IMG/VR virus record: IMGVR_UViG_3300014682_000009
Source of the DNA: a virus
Lineage: Duplodnaviria; Heunggongvirae; Uroviricota; Caudoviricetes
Direction: 5' to 3' (one strand)
Length of the DNA: 7,154 nucleotides
The notes beneath the pieces were generated by a model. The model was given only the letters and a program-made list of their open reading frames with translations. It had not been told where the DNA came from and ran no database searches. Shown here one piece after another: positions 1 to 7,154 of this stretch. Numbering within the stretch: position 1 is the stretch's first letter; each line of letters begins with the position of its first letter. The position numbers were made by a program, and so were the translations under genes.

Positions 1-62
1 GTGGACTTCAGGTTGTCCTTCGCTTCGCGCGGGGTATGCCCCTTACTGCTGCCTTTACCCAT
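1..62 (-). CDS. J: Host-specificity / central tail fiber protein J, 5' end only (first 20 codons; gene runs off the window start)
   Basis: Minus-strand ATG at 62..60 followed by MGKGSSKGHTPREAKDNLKS, which matches the N-terminus of lambda gpJ as I recall it. GGAG lies 9 nt upstream of the ATG. The 60-nt gap after the I stop matches lambda I-J spacing from memory. Confidence 0.85.
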   Translation of the reverse strand, partial: MGKGSSKGHTPREAKDNLKS

Positions 63-84
63 TCCTCACGCTCCATAAACGACA

Positions 85-104
85 AAACCGCCCGCAGGCG
101 GTTT
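85..104 (-). terminator. Terminator-like hairpin with U-tract in the I-J intergenic region
   Basis: Minus-strand RNA AAACCGCC-UGCG-GGCGGUUU (stem up to 8 bp with a 5-bp GC core, 4-nt loop) followed by UUUUGUCGUUU; sits between the I stop (125..123) and the J start (62..60). Confidence 0.45.
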
Positions 105-122
105 CACATAAAACATTTTGCA

Positions 123-770
123 TCAGCGACCAATCACCACAACCTGACCACCGTCCCCTTCGTCTGCCGTGCTGATCTCCTGAGAAACCACGCGTGACCC
201 CACGCGCATTTCCCCGTACAGAACAGGCAGAACATTGCCCTGGGCAACCATGTTATCCAGTGAGGAGAAATAGGTGTTCTGCTTACCGTTATCCGTTGTC
301 TGTGTACGGGGAGTTCTGGCTTTCGGTGCCAGCATCTGCGCCACACCACCGAGCACCATACTGGCCCCCGCACCATACATTCCTGTAATTGCGGCAGCCC
401 CCAACCAACCTGCGGGGTTCCACCATGCCACCGCAATCAGCGCCGCCCCCAGCACAGCCTGAAAAAGACCGCCACTTTTGGCTCCCGCCAGACGCGGCAC
501 AATGTGGATCACGGCACCATTTGCCAGCGATTCATTAAGACGGGCTGATAATTCGTTTTCGCCTGCATCACGCCCGGCAATGCGCACCTGATACCAGCCA
601 TCGCTCAGTTTCTGACGAAACGACGGAAGCTGCGTGGCCAGCGCCCGGATGGCTTCAGCCCCCGTTTTCACACGAAGGTCGATGCGGCGACCAAATCGTT
701 GCAAATCCCCGTAAAGACAGATGCGTGCCATTCCCGGTGACGCCAGAGGGAGTGTGTGCGTCGCTGCCAT
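123..770 (-). CDS. I: Tail tip assembly protein I (lambda gpI family)
   Basis: 215-aa ORF; N-terminus MAATHTLPLASPGMARICLYGDLQRFGRRIDLRVKTGAEAIRALATQLP and C-terminus ...VSQEISTADEGDGGQVVVIGR match lambda gpI from memory. AGAGGT SD about 11 nt upstream of the ATG. Overlaps the 3' end of K by 103 nt in another frame, as in lambda. Confidence 0.92.
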   Translation of the reverse strand: MAATHTLPLASPGMARICLYGDLQRFGRRIDLRVKTGAEAIRALATQLPSFRQKLSDGWYQVRIAGRDAGENELSARLNESLANGAVIHIVPRLAGAKSGGLFQAVLGAALIAVAWWNPAGWLGAAAITGMYGAGASMVLGGVAQMLAPKARTPRTQTTDNGKQNTYFSSLDNMVAQGNVLPVLYGEMRVGSRVVSQEISTADEGDGGQVVVIGR

Positions 771-1411
771 TTGTCGGTATACCTCTCTCGTTTACTCAGT
801 TGTTCAGGAATATGGTGCAGCAGCTCGCCGTCGCCGCAGTAAATGGCGGCATGATTCGGTACCGATGAACCAAAGCAGCACAGCAGCACGTCGCCAGGCT
901 GCGCCTCTGTCAGTGCAACACGGTAAAACCCCGTCGCCTCCATATTGTCAAGATAGAGATTCTGACCGTTACGCCACCAGTCATCCCCGCGATGAAAATC
1001 CGGCATCTCAATCCCCGCCAGATGGTAAGCATCCCGGAACAGTGTGTAACAGTCCGTCACCCCGTGCTCAAAGCGCCGCCCGGTAAGATGCGGCACACAG
1101 CGGAACTTGTGAATCGCCCCCCGGCAGACCAGCCACCACGGCAAATCACTCTGCACCTGCAGCCGCCGGTCAGCCTCACTCAGCCAGGGCAGACCACCGG
1201 GGTGGCTGTGGACCAGCGCCACAATCTCACCCTGCATCTCTGCCCGCAGCCAGTCCTCCGGAGCCATCCGGAAATACGCCTCCGGCTCACCGGAGATATT
1301 CACGCAGGGAAAATATCTTTCTCCCTCCGGCGTTCTCACCACGAAGCCGCACGACTCCGCTGGCGCACATCGCCGGGCGTGCGCCAGAATCGCTGATTCT
1401 GTCTCTGTCAT
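668..1411 (-). CDS. K: Tail tip assembly protein K (lambda gpK family) with MPN/JAMM-like and NlpC/P60-like motifs
   Basis: 247-aa ORF. JAMM-type motif H-S-H-x7-S-x2-D in ...VALVHSHPGGLPWLSEADRR; NlpC/P60-type Cys/His signature in ...VTDCYTLFRDAY...NHAAIYCGDGELLHH. The ATG at 1411 lies 5 nt after the L stop with no obvious SD, so translational coupling is likely; an internal Met49 start (199 aa) is the alternative. Confidence 0.88.
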   Translation of the reverse strand: MTETESAILAHARRCAPAESCGFVVRTPEGERYFPCVNISGEPEAYFRMAPEDWLRAEMQGEIVALVHSHPGGLPWLSEADRRLQVQSDLPWWLVCRGAIHKFRCVPHLTGRRFEHGVTDCYTLFRDAYHLAGIEMPDFHRGDDWWRNGQNLYLDNMEATGFYRVALTEAQPGDVLLCCFGSSVPNHAAIYCGDGELLHHIPEQLSKRERYTDKWQRRTHSLWRHREWHASVFTGICNDLVAASTFV

Positions 1412-1416
1412 GGGAT

Positions 1417-2115
1417 TTACTGCGAAAGTTTGTTTATGGAAAGGAAGCCGCCAAAGTTGCCGACGTTATTGCGGAACTTACAACCGCTCAGGCATTTGCT
1501 GCATTTATCCTTCGTGATATCGGACGTTGGCTGGTCATATTCATCCGCGACCGCAGGACCGTGATAACCGCACTCATCGCCGCGATAGGTCCAGGTGCAG
1601 GTGTTGGCCAGCATGATACGTCCCGGAAAAACAGCGCCGTCCGTTTCCGTCGGCGTGGACAGTACAAAAGAGGCACTCACCGCGCTCAGTTCGCTGCACT
1701 GCTCAATGCGCCAGCGGCTGATCACCTCCTGCTCTGGATCGGCGTCACTGTTTCCGTTGACGAAGTTCACCGCATCCAGAAAACGGGCGTAAACCTTACG
1801 CCGGACCACCGTTCCGCCGACCAGACTCTGCAGATCTTCCGCCATCCCGGTGACCATACCGTACAGGTTAGAGACTTTCAGCGTTGGCCTTGCACTGGCT
1901 CCTTTGCCGTTCATCTCAAATCCGCTTCCCTGAATGGGATAGGCCTGATACTGCCGCCCCTGCCAGGTGACTGGTTCACCTTTTTCGTTCTGCTCATTAC
2001 AGAAGAAATAACGATCTCCGCCGACCTCTGTCAGATCAATTTCCCAGAGCACGACCAGCGCGGATTGCTCCGTTTTAGTGCACTCATTGAGTGTTTCCTG
2101 CTGTATATCCTGCAT
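1417..2115 (-). CDS. L: Tail tip protein L (lambda gpL family) with C-terminal Cys4 cluster
   Basis: 232-aa ORF, MQDIQQETLNEC...FGGFLSINKLSQ, near-identical to lambda gpL as I recall it and the same length. Four C-terminal cysteines (CTWTY, ECGY, CSKC, LSGC). Start ATG overlaps the M stop (ATGA). AGAGGT SD upstream. Confidence 0.94.
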   Translation of the reverse strand: MQDIQQETLNECTKTEQSALVVLWEIDLTEVGGDRYFFCNEQNEKGEPVTWQGRQYQAYPIQGSGFEMNGKGASARPTLKVSNLYGMVTGMAEDLQSLVGGTVVRRKVYARFLDAVNFVNGNSDADPEQEVISRWRIEQCSELSAVSASFVLSTPTETDGAVFPGRIMLANTCTWTYRGDECGYHGPAVADEYDQPTSDITKDKCSKCLSGCKFRNNVGNFGGFLSINKLSQ

Positions 2116-2456
2116 CAGTGAGTGACCTCTTCAAAGGTACAGTTAAAATCGGTATACATGGCATTATCCGAAATGCTCCACTCCCTGCAGACAACCCGGA
2201 CAGTCCTGTTGTGTTTTGGCGGACGCCACAAAAAAGCACGAATCCCGGCATGACGGGATAAAAAACTGTCCAGCGCGGCACGGGAATATTCATCTGTGAC
2301 ACGAAATACCGGTTTAAACGTTTTCAGATCCGCATTCAGACCACCAGCCCGTCGCTGTTCATATCCGTCACCAAACTTTACCGTAATAACTGATGGCTTT
2401 CGTGTCGTCTCCATCCCCTCACGGGGGATCCAGTTAAAAACTTCAGGCTCAGGCAC
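2115..2456 (-). CDS. M: Minor tail protein M (lambda gpM family); start uncertain between GTG 2456, ATG 2471 and ATG 2414
   Basis: Translation ...VKFGDGYEQRRAGGLNADLKT...FLWRPP... aligns with lambda gpM (VRFGDGYSQRAPAGLNANLKT...FLWTPP). GTG at 2456 has a strong GGAGGA SD 7 nt upstream (2469..2464) and overlaps the tape-measure stop by 8 nt. The ATG at 2471 sits inside that SD and has no SD of its own. The TTG at 2501 used by the ORF track is unlikely. Confidence 0.85.
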   Translation of the reverse strand: MPEPEVFNWIPREGMETTRKPSVITVKFGDGYEQRRAGGLNADLKTFKPVFRVTDEYSRAALDSFLSRHAGIRAFLWRPPKHNRTVRVVCREWSISDNAMYTDFNCTFEEVTH

Positions 2457-5400
2457 TGTACAATCCTCCATCCCGACGCGATGACTGCATAATTGACACA
2501 ACCCTGCTGTCGATCAGATCCACCAGTCCCCTGGCTGAGCGCGCATCTATCTCGCCATTGCTCCCTTGATTCTGAATGCTGATGTGATACACGGGAGAAT
2601 AAACAAATCCACCGCCACCATTCACATTTCCAATGGCCCTGACCCCAAGAGAGCCGTCCGCTGCCCGTGTCAGTGGCATGATTGCTTCAGGCCCGGCCTC
2701 GCCCATCAACCCGGCACCTTTCGCAAAAGCAAAATACGTCGGTGTATCCACAATAGTGTTACTGTAAGCACTCAGATTTGCCGATGTGTAAACACCACCT
2801 TTTGCGTTTGCCACTGCCCCCGAAATCCATCCGCCGACCGTACCAAGCCACCCTCCGGCACCGGAGAGTGATTTCAGTCCGTTAACAATGGCTGCATTCA
2901 TCAGAATTTTTGAAACTTCCCGGAGAACTGAACTCCCCCAGTTCCTCCAGTCCACAACATTCCCGGCCAGTGCATCGGAAATATTTGATACCAGCCCGTC
3001 CATCGTGGAAACGACAGCATCTGCCGCCTGTGAAGCATAATCGGTGGCACTGTCTGCCCAGTTGGTCAGTCCCTCCTGGAGTCCGGCATTCCAGTTATTA
3101 CGTAAAGCATCGGCCTTTGCATAATAATCCTGCTGATCGCTGAGACGCTCTTCCAGATATTTTTTATTCAGTTCTTTCTCCTGTTTCCACAGGGCTTCTT
3201 CAATTTCTCCGGCCTGATACTGTCTCAGCAGCTCGTTATTTTTCTGCTCAAACGCCTGCCGGATACTCCACATTTCCTGGAGTCGTTCACGCATCCGTGA
3301 GCCTTCACCATATCCCAGCAACTGCGCGTCGTCAGATGCCCGGGCACTGGCATTACTGTCCGCCAGGCTGCTCTCATACGCAGCAAGCTGCTCACGAATC
3401 TTTTTCTGGTCGATGAGTGCTGCATTCTGCAAAAGCGTTTTTTTCTGCGCTTCTGACAGGGTTGATAATTCGCCCTGACTGACCTGATATTTCATCTTAG
3501 CCAGTTCAGTATTCTGCCCTGCCAGTGCTATTTGTTCTTTTTGCTGTTTAATCAGCCGTTTATAAATATCTTCTGTTTTTTCAGCTTCGGTCTTTTTATG
3601 CGCTTTTGGTTTATTTGCCTGGTTATTTCGCCAGGCATCCAGTGAGTTATTGATATAATTCTGTCTGGCTGTCTGATACGCCTCTCCCACAAAGCCGAGA
3701 TCATCCGCAGCATAACCCAGGCGGGCACGCTCACGGGCTTCCCCCTTCAGGCGGGACAGAGCCAGTTCGCGCTCGCTGTTATTCAGTGCTGTCTGCTGTT
3801 TATCATCCAGGGTTGCCTGTGGTAGCCGTAACGGTACATTCACCATCCCCTGTCGCTGCTGAAGTAATTCATTACCGAGCCCGAGAAGGCGATTAAACTC
3901 GGTATGCTGCCCATTCATGATCAACAGGGACTGATACGCTTTGTTTTGTTCCGCTGCCTGTTGACGGATCAACGCCACCCGTCGCTCCTCCAGCCCGGCA
4001 AGCACATCCTGAATGGATTCCGCTTTGCCCTGCATTTGTGTGAGACGGGACTGTTCAACTGCCAGTTGATTTGTTGCTTCTGCAAGCCCTTCTGTGACAG
4101 TTTTTACCGACGTCATGTGGTTAATCATAAAACCGTTATCGGTTGTCCAGCCCGGGTTTGCCAGCACATACTGATAGCCAGCAATTTTTTCCTGTAAGGA
4201 TTTAATCTTACTTTTCTGCTCGTCAATTAACCTGTTTTGCTCATCAAGTGCCTGCCGCGTCTTTTCCTCATTATCTGACGCTTCAGGAAGCGACATTGCC
4301 GACGTTTTCTGGCGAATTTCGTCGATTGTTGCGGCATACTGGCGTGCAGATTCTCTGGCCTGCTCCTGATTCTGATACATCGTGTACCAGGCCGTCGCCC
4401 CCAGCATGACGAGTCCCGGCACACCACCAACCAACCCCAGCGCACCACTTAACAGACGACTCCCCACTGACGTGACAGTATTCAGCGTTGTCTGTGCCGC
4501 TGTTCTGGCCGCAATATTACGGGTAAGTGACGCCTGGGCAGCAGCCAGTTTCGCTTCTGCGGCTGCCTGCCTTTCGGTACCGCGAGCAGCAACAACCGCC
4601 TGTTGCGCACGATAAACCGCCGCACGCGCCCTGGCTGTTGCTATCTGTGTCCCCCGGAGCTGCGCTTCCGCAAGAGCCACTTCGTTTCTGGCTGCAGTAA
4701 TTAATCCGGCAGTTGCAGATCCAGCAGAAGACGCCATATTGCCAAAATATCGGGCTACCCCGACGGCAACCAGAGCACCAGCAGCGGTTGCCACAGTGTC
4801 AATATTGCCTGCAATACCATTCAGCACACCGGAGAGCGTCTTCGTCACTCCGCTTGCCTCGTTCGCACCACCAACCCAGGCCATAAAGGCGTTTTCAACT
4901 TTGGTTGCAGAGGATGAAACCGTATCAGGCATTGCCGCATATTCATCACGTAATGCCCCAAGCTGACTAATCAGTGCAGGAACAACCTTATCGGCGGTCA
5001 GTTTTCCGTTATCCGCCATGGCCTTCAGATCCTTACGGGCAACCCCCATTCCCGCAGCCAGCGCACGAATAACACGATCGCCGTTCTCATTCACCGAGTT
5101 AAACTCTTCACCGCGCAGCACTCCCTGCGCCAGTGCCTGACTGAACTGCGTGATCACCGAACTGGCTTCTGCTGTACTGGCACCGGATAATTTCAGGCCC
5201 GTGGAGATCGCCTCGGTGACTTTCAGTACCTCCTCAGAACTGTAACCATACTCCCGCATGGAAGCTGCAGAACGGGCAAAAAGGCTGGCGTTATCAGAAA
5301 ACGCCGTCCCCGTTCTCTGGCTGATCGCCATTAATTCACGTTGTGATACCTGAAAATCATCACTGGACTGTGAGGCCTGCTTCAGACGGGCATTTACTGA

Positions 5401-5682
5401 ATTCCACTCATCGGCGAGAGAAATAAGATGACCGGTAGCAAAAGCCCCGGCAAATGCCCCCGTCATATTCAGTGCCGAAGATTTAGCTGTATTTATCTGA
5501 TCCGTCACTTCTGCCAGTGCACGCCGCATTTCACGGGATGCAGCAGCGGACTGCCGGCCTCCGTTCTGCATGGTACGGTAGTAATCCTGCCCCATACGCG
5601 AAGCCCGGGAGATCTCTGACTGGAATGACCGGGAATTTGCCGAGATTTTAATAATCAGTTCACGTAATGTCGCCACACTCAT
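2449..5682 (-). CDS. Tail tape measure protein (tail length determinant; lambda gpH functional equivalent, divergent sequence)
   Basis: 1077-aa ORF placed between the G/G-T chaperone genes and M. Long Ala/Gln/Glu/Lys-rich predicted helical stretches, two hydrophobic segments (around ...TVATAAGALVAVGVARYF... and ...LLSGALGLVGGVPGLVMLGATAWY...), and a Gly-rich C-terminal region ending ...RDGGLYSA that resembles the lambda gpH C-terminus (...RDGGLFS...). ATG at 5682 with GGAG immediately upstream (short spacer). Confidence 0.93.
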   Translation of the reverse strand: MSVATLRELIIKISANSRSFQSEISRASRMGQDYYRTMQNGGRQSAAASREMRRALAEVTDQINTAKSSALNMTGAFAGAFATGHLISLADEWNSVNARLKQASQSSDDFQVSQRELMAISQRTGTAFSDNASLFARSAASMREYGYSSEEVLKVTEAISTGLKLSGASTAEASSVITQFSQALAQGVLRGEEFNSVNENGDRVIRALAAGMGVARKDLKAMADNGKLTADKVVPALISQLGALRDEYAAMPDTVSSSATKVENAFMAWVGGANEASGVTKTLSGVLNGIAGNIDTVATAAGALVAVGVARYFGNMASSAGSATAGLITAARNEVALAEAQLRGTQIATARARAAVYRAQQAVVAARGTERQAAAEAKLAAAQASLTRNIAARTAAQTTLNTVTSVGSRLLSGALGLVGGVPGLVMLGATAWYTMYQNQEQARESARQYAATIDEIRQKTSAMSLPEASDNEEKTRQALDEQNRLIDEQKSKIKSLQEKIAGYQYVLANPGWTTDNGFMINHMTSVKTVTEGLAEATNQLAVEQSRLTQMQGKAESIQDVLAGLEERRVALIRQQAAEQNKAYQSLLIMNGQHTEFNRLLGLGNELLQQRQGMVNVPLRLPQATLDDKQQTALNNSERELALSRLKGEARERARLGYAADDLGFVGEAYQTARQNYINNSLDAWRNNQANKPKAHKKTEAEKTEDIYKRLIKQQKEQIALAGQNTELAKMKYQVSQGELSTLSEAQKKTLLQNAALIDQKKIREQLAAYESSLADSNASARASDDAQLLGYGEGSRMRERLQEMWSIRQAFEQKNNELLRQYQAGEIEEALWKQEKELNKKYLEERLSDQQDYYAKADALRNNWNAGLQEGLTNWADSATDYASQAADAVVSTMDGLVSNISDALAGNVVDWRNWGSSVLREVSKILMNAAIVNGLKSLSGAGGWLGTVGGWISGAVANAKGGVYTSANLSAYSNTIVDTPTYFAFAKGAGLMGEAGPEAIMPLTRAADGSLGVRAIGNVNGGGGFVYSPVYHISIQNQGSNGEIDARSARGLVDLIDSRVVSIMQSSRRDGGLYSA

Positions 5683-5692
5683 TCTCCGGACG

Positions 5693-5714
5693 AAAAAAAA
5701 CCGCCGAAGCGGTT
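5693..5714 (-). terminator. Terminator-like hairpin (UUCG tetraloop) with U8 tract in the T-H intergenic region
   Basis: Minus-strand RNA AACCGC-UUCG-GCGGUU followed by a run of eight U in total; lies between the T stop (5725..5723) and the tape-measure ATG (5682). Confidence 0.45.
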
Positions 5715-5722
5715 ATGTTGAC

Positions 5723-6411
5723 TCACTGAGACACTATTAAAAGCGCGTTTTCCAGTCCGGCAAATGGATCTGATACGCCTTCTGTCTGCTCCTTCTCCCA
5801 CTGAAGAAGCGCATCATTCAGTGGCACTTTGACCCCCTGCGCACCGTAAACAGCTGAAACAATCTGGGCAGCCCGGATATCAGCCCGTTCGTCCCCCAGC
5901 GGGCTGAACCTGTCAAATTCTGCCCACATCATGATTTCTGATGCGGACATTTCCCGGCGTAACTCTGACAATGTGCGCCCCATCCTGAGCGCCAGCATCA
6001 TCAGAAAACGCATCCCCGGAAGCTCTACTTTTTTTTAACCTCGCCGGCATCACTGATCAGTTCCAGAGACTGCCGAAGAAGCCGCGCATGCACCGGGCCA
6101 TACACGGCAATCACCTGTTCACGATCATCCTCTGAAAATACAGGTTGCAGTCCGGTATCACACAGAACATCAATGAACAGTTCAACATCTGCCTCCAGAT
6201 TTCGGCGGGCGCGCTCCGCAACGGATAACGGTGTCTCATCATCTTTTGCTTTAACGATCTCCTGCCAGCGCAACCAGGCTTCTGCAGAAGGTTCCCGTAA
6301 TACAACCGTTGCCCCTTCCCATTCAGGCACATCAACAGTTTTATGGCGAAACCCCGACATCGTTGCCAGTGCCAGATTGCGGATATTTTTAGTCATCACA
6401 TCTATCCTCAT
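5723..6411 (-). CDS. GT: G-T fusion chaperone produced by programmed -1 ribosomal frameshift (T segment 5723-6034 in the -1 frame)
   Basis: The 96-aa T ORF (5723..6013) is in the -1 frame relative to G. The -1 frame is closed by TAA at 6037..6035 and open from 6034, so the shift must occur in the heptamer at 6034..6028. Predicted junction ...GEVKKK|VELPGMRFLMMLAL... Confidence 0.85.
6025..6411 (-). CDS. G: Tail assembly chaperone G (lambda gpG functional equivalent)
   Basis: 128-aa acidic ORF immediately downstream of V (TAATG stop/start overlap at 6413..6409), ending ...GEVKKK-TAG with the slippery A_AAA_AAG at its last two codons; position and frameshift architecture are diagnostic of G. 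Confidence 0.88.
   Translation of the reverse strand: MRIDVMTKNIRNLALATMSGFRHKTVDVPEWEGATVVLREPSAEAWLRWQEIVKAKDDETPLSVAERARRNLEADVELFIDVLCDTGLQPVFSEDDREQVIAVYGPVHARLLRQSLELISDAGEVKKK
6028..6034 (-). other. Slippery heptamer A_AAA_AAG (X_XXY_YYZ) for the G-T -1 frameshift, abutting the G stop codon
   Basis: Minus-strand reading GAG GTT AAA AAA AAG TAG, part of an 8-A run (plus 6029-6036 is T8); the zero-frame stop TAG is at 6027..6025, directly 3' of the heptamer. Confidence 0.8.
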
Positions 6412-7115
6412 TAACTGACGGTAACAGTGCAGGAAGTGGAGGTCACCTTGTTAACAGGGCTTGCTGAATCAGAAATCTCGCAGGTATACGCACCGGCATC
6501 ACCTGATGCTGCTGATGCCTTACTGAATGTTGCCGCCGTCTGTCCGGAAACAGGAGAACTACCTTTCTTCCAGACATAAGAATAAGGCGGCACACCACCG
6601 GCAGCCTCAACCACCATTTCGAGTTTCGCTCCGGCAGAAACCTGCAGCGTGCTGTTTAAATCGACCTTCACTTTCAGCGGCTCTGTCGTCAGCACAGGTT
6701 TACCTTTCAGGCGCAGGGAAAACGTTGCAGCCACAACACCATTAGTTCCTGCAGACCAGGTATGCTGACGCACCTCTGCCATAAAGGTAAATCCGTTGCC
6801 TGACGGAAAAATAACTTTAAAGCCATACGTGGTGTCATTGTCATAGGCACTGCGCAACGCGTTCTGGGCAGCATTGAGGTAAAAGTTGCCTGACATGGAA
6901 ATCTCTGACGCGGCACCAAGGCCGTTAATATTTTCCTGCTCAACAGAACACAGCGTGGTGACATCAATATCCTGCTTTTGTCCTGCGGTAAACTGCACCT
7001 CTTTGATTGTACAGCTCAGGCCAAGATAGCTGGCAGAATCCAGGGTTTCTGCTGTTACCGGTGCAGACGAAATCATAATTTTCGTCAGTTGCGAACGCTC
7101 AAAATTAGAGGACAT
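6411..7115 (-). CDS. V: Major tail (tube) protein V with C-terminal Ig-like domain
   Basis: 234-aa ORF with a strong AGGAGA SD 5 nt upstream of the ATG at 7115, sitting immediately upstream of G/G-T. The C-terminal ~90 aa (…KVDLNSTLQVSAGAKLEMVVEAAGGVPPYSYVWKKGSSPVSGQTAATFSKASAASGDAGAYTCEISD…TVTVS) has the look of a bacterial Ig-like domain, as at the C-terminus of lambda gpV. The N-terminal domain is not lambda-like in sequence. Confidence 0.9.
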   Translation of the reverse strand: MSSNFERSQLTKIMISSAPVTAETLDSASYLGLSCTIKEVQFTAGQKQDIDVTTLCSVEQENINGLGAASEISMSGNFYLNAAQNALRSAYDNDTTYGFKVIFPSGNGFTFMAEVRQHTWSAGTNGVVAATFSLRLKGKPVLTTEPLKVKVDLNSTLQVSAGAKLEMVVEAAGGVPPYSYVWKKGSSPVSGQTAATFSKASAASGDAGAYTCEISDSASPVNKVTSTSCTVTVS

Positions 7116-7130
7116 ACTCGTCTCCTGAAA

Positions 7131-7154
7131 ATAAAAAACCCGCCAGCGGCGGGG
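7131..7154 (-). terminator. Intrinsic-terminator-like hairpin with U-tract upstream of V (3' of the preceding gene, presumably U)
   Basis: Minus-strand RNA CCCGCC-GCU-GGCGGG (6-bp all-GC stem) followed by UUUUUUAU, then the V SD and ATG. The structure abuts the window edge, so the 5' flank is unseen. Confidence 0.5.

Follow-up and report, generated by a model that had tools for sequence, protein, structure and literature searches.

A lambda-type tail tip joined to an HK97/BP-4795-type tail shaft at the M/L gene boundary of a lambdoid Escherichia coli phage or prophage

The window, by which we mean the whole stretch of 7,154 nucleotides analysed here, holds the tail genes of a temperate E. coli phage or prophage of the lambdoid group whose head is HK97-type; HK97-type head genes lie upstream of the module both in its relatives and in the closest contig. 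All genes are found on the minus strand, in the order V-G-T-H-M-L-K-I-J′, and are listed here in that direction:

7139..7153, minus strand: terminator-like GC hairpin with T-run upstream of V (consensus scan)
6411..7115, minus strand: V, major tail tube protein, 234 aa, HK97-type (71% amino acid identity to HK97 gp12)
6025..6411, minus strand: G, tail assembly chaperone, 128 aa (Pfam Phage_TAC_1, E = 2.8e-58)
6028..6034, minus strand: slippery heptamer A AAA AAG for a predicted -1 G/T frameshift (read from the sequence)
5723..6028, minus strand (ORF listed from ATG 6013): T part of the G-T frameshift product (Pfam Phage_tail_T, E = 3.5e-19)
5699..5714, minus strand: terminator-like hairpin between T and H (consensus scan)
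2449..5682, minus strand: H, tape measure protein, 1077 aa, HK97/BP-4795-type (Pfam Phage_HK97_TLTM, E = 4.9e-94; TMP_3; Tape_meas_lam_C)
2115..2471, minus strand: M, distal tail protein (Pfam Phage_min_tail, E = 1.2e-31)
2114..2136, no strand: junction zone at the M stop/L start overlap, TGATG (blastn end at 2135; maximum-chi-square break)
1417..2115, minus strand: L, tail tip hub protein, 232 aa, lambda-type (Pfam Phage_tail_L, E = 2.3e-100)
668..1411, minus strand: K, 247 aa, JAB/MPN and NlpC/P60 domains, lambda-type (Pfam Prok-JAB, NLPC_P60)
123..770, minus strand: I, 215 aa, lambda-type with a divergent middle (Pfam Lambda_tail_I)
351..600, minus strand: divergent patch in I, about residues 57–140 (62–70% DNA identity to lambda)
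63..122, minus strand: I-J spacer, 60 nt, with a conserved hairpin at about 103–84 (59/60 identical to lambda)
1..62, minus strand: start of J, the central tail fibre, first 20 codons, MGKGSSKGHTPREAKDNLKS (20/20 identical to lambda J)

Scanning both strands against Rfam at gathering thresholds returned no RNA family, and a scan for promoter-like sites gave fewer than in shuffled sequence, none of which we take as meaningful.

A sequence-only reading of this DNA had proposed that V, G, T and the tape measure share the gene order of lambda with clearly different sequences, and alignment confirms this. H is 22–28% identical to its lambda counterpart, with the 27.6% match spanning the C-terminal 455 residues only, V aligns with lambda V in part and at 22.7% identity (E = 6e-4), and the G and T proteins have no significant match to lambda G or T. 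M was likewise correctly described as only moderately similar to lambda (39–40% amino acid identity); it is 65% identical to M of BP-4795 and 30–40% identical to that of HK97, and its start is either ATG 2471 or GTG 2456, the ORF list giving an earlier TTG at 2501. What that reading termed a non-lambda shaft set is specifically HK97/BP-4795-type, M included. V carries a C-terminal Ig-like domain (Pfam Ig_2/Ig_3, residues 154–233) and also matches tail-tube families weakly. In G, the stop codon TAG (6027–6025) follows directly after the heptamer, and T lies in the -1 frame, which is open from 6028. This is the signature of the -1 frameshift in the G/G-T chaperone genes, and we predict that frameshifting takes place here, an arrangement shared with HK97. 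Blockwise comparison of H with HK97 gives identities from 18% to 96% per 50 residues, and over residues 300–700 the HK97 protein is, save for one block, only 18–46% identical to that of the window; judged by these values, H is itself a mosaic. As tail length is known to be proportional to the length of the tape measure, 1077 residues in H against 853 in lambda would fit a tail about 25% longer than that of lambda.

The same reading considered L, K, I and the beginning of J to be near-identical to lambda, a wording that is somewhat overstated: L is 94.4% identical over 232 of 232 residues, K 93.0% over the 199 residues annotated in lambda, the start of J at 20 of 20 residues, and I 82.1% with a length difference of eight residues and a divergent middle. 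L and K are about 93–98% identical to lambda at the DNA level. Each of the eight cysteines of L is at its lambda position (12, 39, 140, 173, 182, 205, 208 and 212), L thereby carrying the conserved cysteines of the iron-sulfur domain; an iron-sulfur cluster in gpL has been described (PMC10721106). K is an intact frame of 247 residues here; in the lambda reference one base is deleted and 199 residues are annotated. I starts inside K with an overlap of 103 nt, equal to that in lambda (14773–14875), and the I-J spacer has the lambda length, as had been claimed; in the phage 434 record a terminator is annotated at the position of this spacer. Gene order, I/K overlap and short pre-J spacer are thus all those of a lambda-type L-K-I-J set.

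Window positions 1–350 are 96–100% identical to lambda, and the divergent patch of I shows about 86–96% identity to cdtI and PhiR40_1 over 401–600 and about 70% to every reference over 351–400; as a protein, I is 92% identical to that of cdtI. Finer mosaic patches are found in I, K and H. For J, the closest contig reaches as far as residue 584, with 97.9% identity to lambda up to there; in OkiPb01676, a close relative, identity to lambda over the last ~130 residues is no more than 34–44%. The window holds only 62 bases of J, so receptor specificity is not to be read from it. Separate histories lie behind the shaft, the tip hub, the middle part of I and the receptor-binding end of J, and tail typing or a guess at the receptor from a single part of the tail module is not valid.

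The module is widespread. Of 5,426 complete E. coli genomes, 887 contain the whole window at 95–99% identity, and 888 do when the shaft alone is considered, which means that roughly every sixth genome has the same joint. It goes back to the ancestor of a very common prophage lineage of E. coli and is not private to this sequence. At the DNA level the whole module, M/L joint included, is 96–98% identical in the isolated coliphages vB_EcoS-689R5, vB_EcoS-640R1, PhiR49_2, Evi and phi467 and in prophages, for example the one adjoining potB in E. coli OkiPb01676, with isolated phages at 96–97%; in isolated phages and prophages with this module, the differences from the window are concentrated in I and K. 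A JGI metagenome contig (99.1% identity) was the nearest sequence found, although the window is not an exact substring of it; the 63 differing positions all lie within 192–1331, and 35 of them fall in the divergent patch of I. An exact-sequence look-up of the 215-residue I protein gave no match, probably as gene callers use a later start, while the same look-up with H did match.

The sequence-only reading placed a recombination junction around M or the M/L boundary, at about 2100–2500. In a sensitive blastn search against lambda 8500–19500, identity along the window is not uniform: a single long match joins window 1–2135 to lambda 13409–15566 at 89.5% identity, which together with the protein identities makes L, K and I lambda-like on real alignment, and the only further match is a 58-base scrap inside M. 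A maximum-chi-square scan of the M and L alignment puts the break at 2119 (range 2114–2136, chi2 = 293), where identity to lambda steps from 45% (M side) to 92.5% (L side), so that the predicted interval holds at its lower edge. Aligning five phages across the junction shows the window to be BP-4795-like upstream of the L start and lambda-like downstream, and the tip-segment matches of many other lambda-tip phages stop at 2117–2119. A conserved island lies at the joint, with 15 identical bases between the window and lambda and 25 between lambda and BP-4795. As identity to lambda already drops to 72% at 2051–2100, the joint could be slightly blurred or layered, and we locate it as a zone and not as an exact crossover base.

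Similarity thus changes abruptly where M and L meet, and the relationships to the two sides conflict, as in the modular mosaicism of lambdoid phages. Per-gene identity matrices place V, G, T and H of the window with HK97 and BP-4795, its M with BP-4795 only, and its L, K and I with lambda and cdtI. The other shaft type is common to lambda and VT1-Sakai and the other tip subtype to BP-4795 and VT1-Sakai, so that each of the four possible pairings of two shaft types with two tip subtypes is represented among lambda, VT1-Sakai, BP-4795 and the window; in cdtI, a third shaft type is joined to the same tip as in the window. VT1-Sakai had been considered as the representative Stx-phage relative of the shaft and was rejected since its own shaft is lambda-like, and BP-4795 was used instead. 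We hold it highly probable that the window is a historical recombinant, in which an HK97/BP-4795-type lineage supplied V, G/G-T, H and M, the genes for tube and assembly, and the lambda lineage supplied L, K and I together with the start of J. The modular exchange that had been proposed is borne out by the stepwise identity, the reciprocal pattern with HK97, the four combinations and the third-codon-position identity in L. A paper on co-transfer in lambdoid phages does not address tip versus shaft in particular.

A step in identity could also arise with no recombination at all, if purifying selection were stronger on L, K and I within a single, vertically inherited module. L and K are indeed better conserved than G, T and H across all compared phages, and BP-4795 against the window gives 78% for L and 86–87% for K but 66% for G and 60% for T. 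Selection of this kind would not, however, make relationships conflict across the joint: HK97 is the closest or near-closest relative for V, G and T, yet the most distant one for L, K and I, and the four combinations together with the third shaft of cdtI rule out mere differential conservation. The change furthermore occurs within about 20 bases, and at the mostly synonymous third codon positions L is 84% identical to lambda versus 51% to BP-4795, which implies that its closeness to lambda reflects recent shared ancestry and not protein constraint alone. We therefore regard an explanation by conservation as very improbable. More improbable still is that two prophages were merged by an assembler at the conserved M/L island. 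Such an error could be suspected where the nearest sequence is a metagenome contig and the joint has an island of 15–25 bases, but a repeat of this length is far too short to mislead modern assemblers, and the arrangement is continuous at 95–99% in the 887 complete chromosomes and carried by several independently sequenced phage isolates.

How the joint was made is less clear-cut than that it is real. It may have been a random, illegitimate join, retained because its position at a gene boundary gave a working tail, with no mechanistic part for the island. The M side of the window is at background identity to lambda (45%), cdtI has a different, non-overlapping M-L spacing for the same tip, and function suffices to explain the island, which holds the start of L with its Shine-Dalgarno sequence and encodes the conserved C-terminus of M. 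Pointing the other way, though not decisively, the homology breaks of many unrelated phages coincide at 2117–2119, lambda and BP-4795 share 25 identical bases at the island, and efficient recombination of diverged sequences by lambda Red has been reported (PMC2327257). We judge an illegitimate origin of the joint to be rather unlikely, while keeping it as a serious alternative. As function alone (ribosome-binding site, start codon and conserved M C-terminus) also explains the island, its presence is not proof of a homologous crossover.

For the historical recombinant that we prefer, we suggest that recombination between co-resident or co-infecting lambdoid genomes produced the exchange, with a joint within about 20 bases of the M stop and L start. 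The crossover would probably have taken place in the short conserved island, which contains the stop codon of M and the start codon and ribosome-binding site of L, and later, smaller exchanges may have reshuffled parts of I, K and H. Transfer may have run in either direction, and it may just as well be lambda that carries the derived combination. The hybrid presumably builds a working tail, and the fact that induced or isolated phages carry the same module suggests that it is functional. In lambda, electrostatic contacts mediate the stacking of the M ring on the L/J ring. The structure of the lambda tail shows M as the ring that separates the tube from the L/J ring, and has an I trimer supporting the C-terminal helices of H (PMC10721106). 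In an alignment of H C-termini, the end of H in the window keeps the ...RDGGLxS tail common to lambda-tip phages.

One could speculate further that the M/L boundary is a preferred and reused exchange point, with the island as linker, M as a general adaptor ring and a tape-measure C-terminus that tracks the tip and not the shaft. We put this forward tentatively and think it less probable than otherwise. If true, a lambda-family tip could be plugged onto at least three unrelated shafts (lambda-type, cdtI-type and HK97/BP-4795-type). An M ring 40% identical to that of lambda here adjoins a nearly lambda-identical L/J hub, which may help in the engineering of chimeric tails. The value of the window is chiefly in annotation, as a clean and well-bounded case of the module shuffling that defines lambdoid phages.

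Lambda (NC_001416, 13429–18903) has the same L, K, I, J order and Pfam families, but its DNA is unrelated to the window everywhere upstream of L, and cdtI joins the same tip to its own shaft with a different M-L spacing. HK97 (NC_002167) shows DNA homology only at 2611–7153, at about 70%, with amino acid identities of 71% for V (gp12, of the same length), 62–64% for G (gp13), 64% for T (gp14 part) and 55–57% for H (gp16), and the HK97-specific Pfam tape-measure domain is present in H of the window. A putative terminator is annotated in HK97 at the place equivalent to 7139..7153, whereas the moron gp15, which with a terminator separates T and H in HK97, and the moron after I are both absent here. 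The similarity to HK97 extends over V, G, T and H but not to the genes after the tape measure, as the HK97 tip is unlike that of the window (M 30–40%, L, K and I about 33–36%). BP-4795 (an Stx phage, Marienburgvirus) and related O157 prophage modules are homologous and collinear over the whole window, with amino acid identities of 59–71% for V, 66% for G, 60–64% for T, 77% for H, 78% for L, 86–87% for K and 62% for I. BP-4795 thus shares with the window the combination of an HK97-like shaft and a lambda-family tip, but its DNA is only about 71–80% identical, and its L, K and I are of the Stx-phage subtype (95–97% identical to VT1-Sakai) and not of the lambda subtype. A lambda-type tip on an HK97/BP-4795-type shaft is textbook lambdoid-phage mosaicism, already known and ordinary.

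We find that the window joins an HK97/BP-4795-type tail shaft (V, G/G-T, the tape measure gene H, and M) to a lambda-type tip (L, K, I, J) where the M stop codon meets the L start. The sensible long reading frames are all minus-strand and run V-G-T-H-M-L-K-I-J, the arrangement classical for lambdoid tails, so that V, G, T and the tape measure follow lambdoid order, as the sequence-only reading held:

7115-6411, minus: V (Pfam: weak tail-tube matches and a C-terminal Ig_2/Ig_3 domain)
6411-6025, minus: G (Pfam Phage_TAC_1)
6013-5723, minus: T frame (Pfam Phage_tail_T)
5682-2449, minus: H (Pfam TMP_3, Phage_HK97_TLTM, Tape_meas_lam_C)
about 2471-2115, minus: M (Pfam Phage_min_tail)
2115-1417, minus: L (Pfam Phage_tail_L)
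1411-668, minus: K (Pfam Prok-JAB and NLPC_P60)
770-123, minus: I (Pfam Lambda_tail_I)
between I and J: spacer of 60 bases
62-1, minus: J, first 20 codons

The immunoglobulin-like domain at the end of the tail tube protein occupies V residues 154-233 (window 6411-6650). The start of M is ambiguous (TTG 2501 in the ORF list, ATG 2471 in RefSeq, the equivalent of GTG 2456 in one relative's annotation), and every candidate (2449-2501) overlaps the end of H. G ends in ...GTT AAA AAA AAG TAG, with a slippery A AAA AAG at 6034-6028 (minus) directly 5′ of the stop codon, and from there the -1 frame, that of T, stays open; judged by its sequence, the window therefore has the usual G/G-T -1 frameshift arrangement, with a predicted fusion ...GEVKKK/VELPGMRF... 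(6025-6034 region, minus). Within the late operon, the minus strand carries two strong hairpins with T-runs that resemble terminators, one at 5699-5714 in the T/H gap and one at 7139-7153 upstream of V. In HK97, putative terminators are annotated at the equivalent places, and a moron, gp15, which the window lacks, lies between T and H. The I-J spacer contains a conserved hairpin, AAACCGCC-TGCG-GGCGGTTTT (84-103, minus), where the phage 434 record annotates a terminator.

Sensitive blastn against lambda 8500-19500 aligned window 1-2135 with lambda 13409-15566 in one long match (89.5% identity) and gave no further lambda DNA match outside 1-2135 except a 58-base scrap inside M. Identity to lambda is thus not uniform: 100-base windows from 601 to 2100 are 81-100% identical, and beyond 2135 no lambda DNA is alignable. 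Among the proteins, L is 94.4% identical to lambda, K 93.0% (across lambda's annotated 199 residues) and I 82.1%; the J start matches at 20/20 residues, 8/8 L cysteines stand at lambda positions, and the I-J spacer, 60 bases in both as first read, is identical at 59/60. The earlier description of these genes as near-identical to lambda stands for L, K and the J start and is slightly generous overall, for I especially. V (22.7%, a weak and partial match) and H (27.6%, C-terminal part only) differ clearly from lambda, G and T gave no significant match to lambda proteins, and M is moderately similar (40.4%), all as proposed.

In a global M+L alignment of the window with lambda, the maximum-chi-square break falls at 2119, with near-maximal values at 2114-2136, at the TGATG overlap of M stop and L start at 2115. 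This places the junction inside the range anticipated for it, around M or the M/L boundary at about 2100-2500. Identity is 92.5% on the L side and 45% on the M side, the latter being the background level for a forced alignment. In megablast, many other phages with the same tip but a different shaft also end their match at 2117-2119.

Such a step might arise without exchange, if the tip were merely better conserved than the shaft, but differential conservation alone cannot produce the patterns found here. Every pairing of two shaft types with two tip subtypes occurs among four phages, the Stx subtype being the L/K/I type of BP-4795 and VT1-Sakai:

Table. Shaft and tip types of four phages
lambda: shaft lambda; tip lambda
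VT1-Sakai: shaft lambda (V 78%, H 52%, M 80% to lambda); tip Stx (L 97%, K 96%, I 95% to BP-4795)
BP-4795: shaft HK97-like; tip Stx
window: shaft HK97-like; tip lambda

In the nucleotide alignment over the joint, the window groups with BP-4795, and lambda with VT1-Sakai, upstream of the L ATG; downstream of it, the window groups with lambda, and BP-4795 with VT1-Sakai. Phages cdtI and PhiR40_1 have a third shaft type: cdtI H is 23-27% identical to all other phages compared and its V 55% to lambda, with cdtI L, K and I matching the window at 91-94%. Third-codon identity in L is 84% to lambda versus 51% to BP-4795, so the closeness to lambda reflects recent common descent and not protein constraint alone. 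The similarity step, its position and the conflicting relationships across the joint are direct observations.

Among 5,426 complete E. coli genomes, 887 match the whole window at ≥80% coverage, in most cases with 95-99% identity, and the same module occurs at 96-97% identity in the isolated phages vB_EcoS-689R5, vB_EcoS-640R1, PhiR49_2, Evi and phi467. The joint is therefore neither an assembly artefact nor an event private to the window, but is ancestral to a widespread prophage lineage. A search with the shaft part by itself gives 888 of these genomes, so the shaft is essentially always linked to this tip in that collection; the tip segment alone matches thousands more, at 90-95% identity. 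Of the sequences retrieved, a JGI metagenome contig (Ga0121517_100372, 99.12% identity) comes nearest. Public records of phages and genomes already contain the module under standard annotation.

The joint was probably formed by exchange between lambdoid genomes in one cell. At the joint is a short conserved island, in which a Shine-Dalgarno-like AGGTGGTGA is found together with the stop of M and the start of L. Lambda and BP-4795 are identical for 25 bases of it, yet elsewhere their M genes cannot be aligned; the window matches the last 15 bases. A homologous or relaxed-homology crossover could have started in such an island, and lambda Red is reported to recombine diverged sequences efficiently (PMC2327257). 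An illegitimate join kept by selection is a live alternative, since the island can also be explained by function alone.

It is plausible from the lambda tail structure that the hybrid tail works. The beta-sandwich of the lambda M hexamer binds the tube and its E-loops stack electrostatically on the L/J ring, while the C-terminal part of lambda I forms a trimeric plug supporting the H C-terminal helices (PMC10721106). The window I is lambda-identical across this C-terminal part, and the end of the window H (last ~40 residues, window 2452-2560) keeps a G-x-NG-x-I...RDGG-L-x-S tail. As this pattern is common to lambda, cdtI, BP-4795 and VT1-Sakai, all with lambda-family tips, and is absent from HK97, the H end may track tip type rather than shaft type.

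Finer mosaicism is seen within the tip. Positions 1-350 (J start, spacer, last ~75 I codons) are 96-100% identical to lambda, 351-400 about 70% identical to every reference, and 401-600 about 86-96% to cdtI and PhiR40_1 versus 62-70% to lambda. Further short patches of divergence are found at 901-950, 1851-1950 and 2051-2100. All 63 differences from the JGI contig fall within 192-1331 (genes I and K), 23 of them in 345-412, and the remaining 5.8 kb are identical, which points to recent replacement of a small patch in these two genes. One G in K (GGAGGC[G]TATTTCC; window 1260-1290, minus; reference sequence L001 5757-5775) is missing from the lambda reference and lambda strain OR474059, and is present in the window, cdtI, PhiR40_1, HK629, the E. 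coli OkiPb01676 prophage, the JGI contig and, in the alignment, VT1-Sakai. Because of the deletion, lambda K is out of frame over its first ~45 codons, hence its short 199-residue annotation; the window K is intact at 247 residues, with JAB and NlpC/P60 domains. HK629 K has the G yet carries the short-K annotation.

Lambdoid genomes are characterised by abrupt changes of similarity where genes meet and by head, tail and tip segments that reassort freely, a picture for which Juhala et al. (2000), on HK97 and HK022, is one source. With its sharp M/L break and conflicting shaft and tip groupings, the window is consistent with modular exchange in lambdoid phages, as first read. The modular theory is summarised in PMC9836094. 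Of J the window holds 62 bases only; in the JGI contig its first 584 residues are 97.9% identical to lambda. The J of the closely related OkiPb01676 prophage (L005 11667-15062) matches lambda at 96-100% as far as residue 700, at 81-99% as far as residue 1000 and at only 34-44% over the last ~130 residues. Receptor binding by J resides in its C-terminal end. This J has a further internal mosaic boundary at the receptor-binding end, and a lambda-type tip need not mean lambda's receptor.

HK97 is the mirror image of lambda, with DNA homology limited to 2611-7153 at roughly 65-75% identity. Its V is 71% identical to that of the window at equal length (234 residues), G 62-64%, T 64% and H 55-57%, with M at 30-40% and L, K and I at 33-36%. 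HK97-type head genes (including HNH endonuclease, P27-type small terminase, portal, S78 protease and HK97-fold capsid) lie just upstream of the tail block in close relatives and in the nearest contig. The Stx phage BP-4795 is collinear with the entire window (V 59-71%, G 66%, T 60-64%, H 77%, M 65%, L 78%, K 86-87%, I 62%), and in M and the last part of H the window is nearer to it than to lambda or HK97. Against HK97, H is 74-96% identical over residues 1-300, 18-46% over most of 300-700 and 62-80% over 700-850, so the tape measure gene is a mosaic too when set against HK97; against BP-4795, H (window 2449-5682) is 66-92% identical except at residues 801-900 (42-50%) and over the final 27 (56%).
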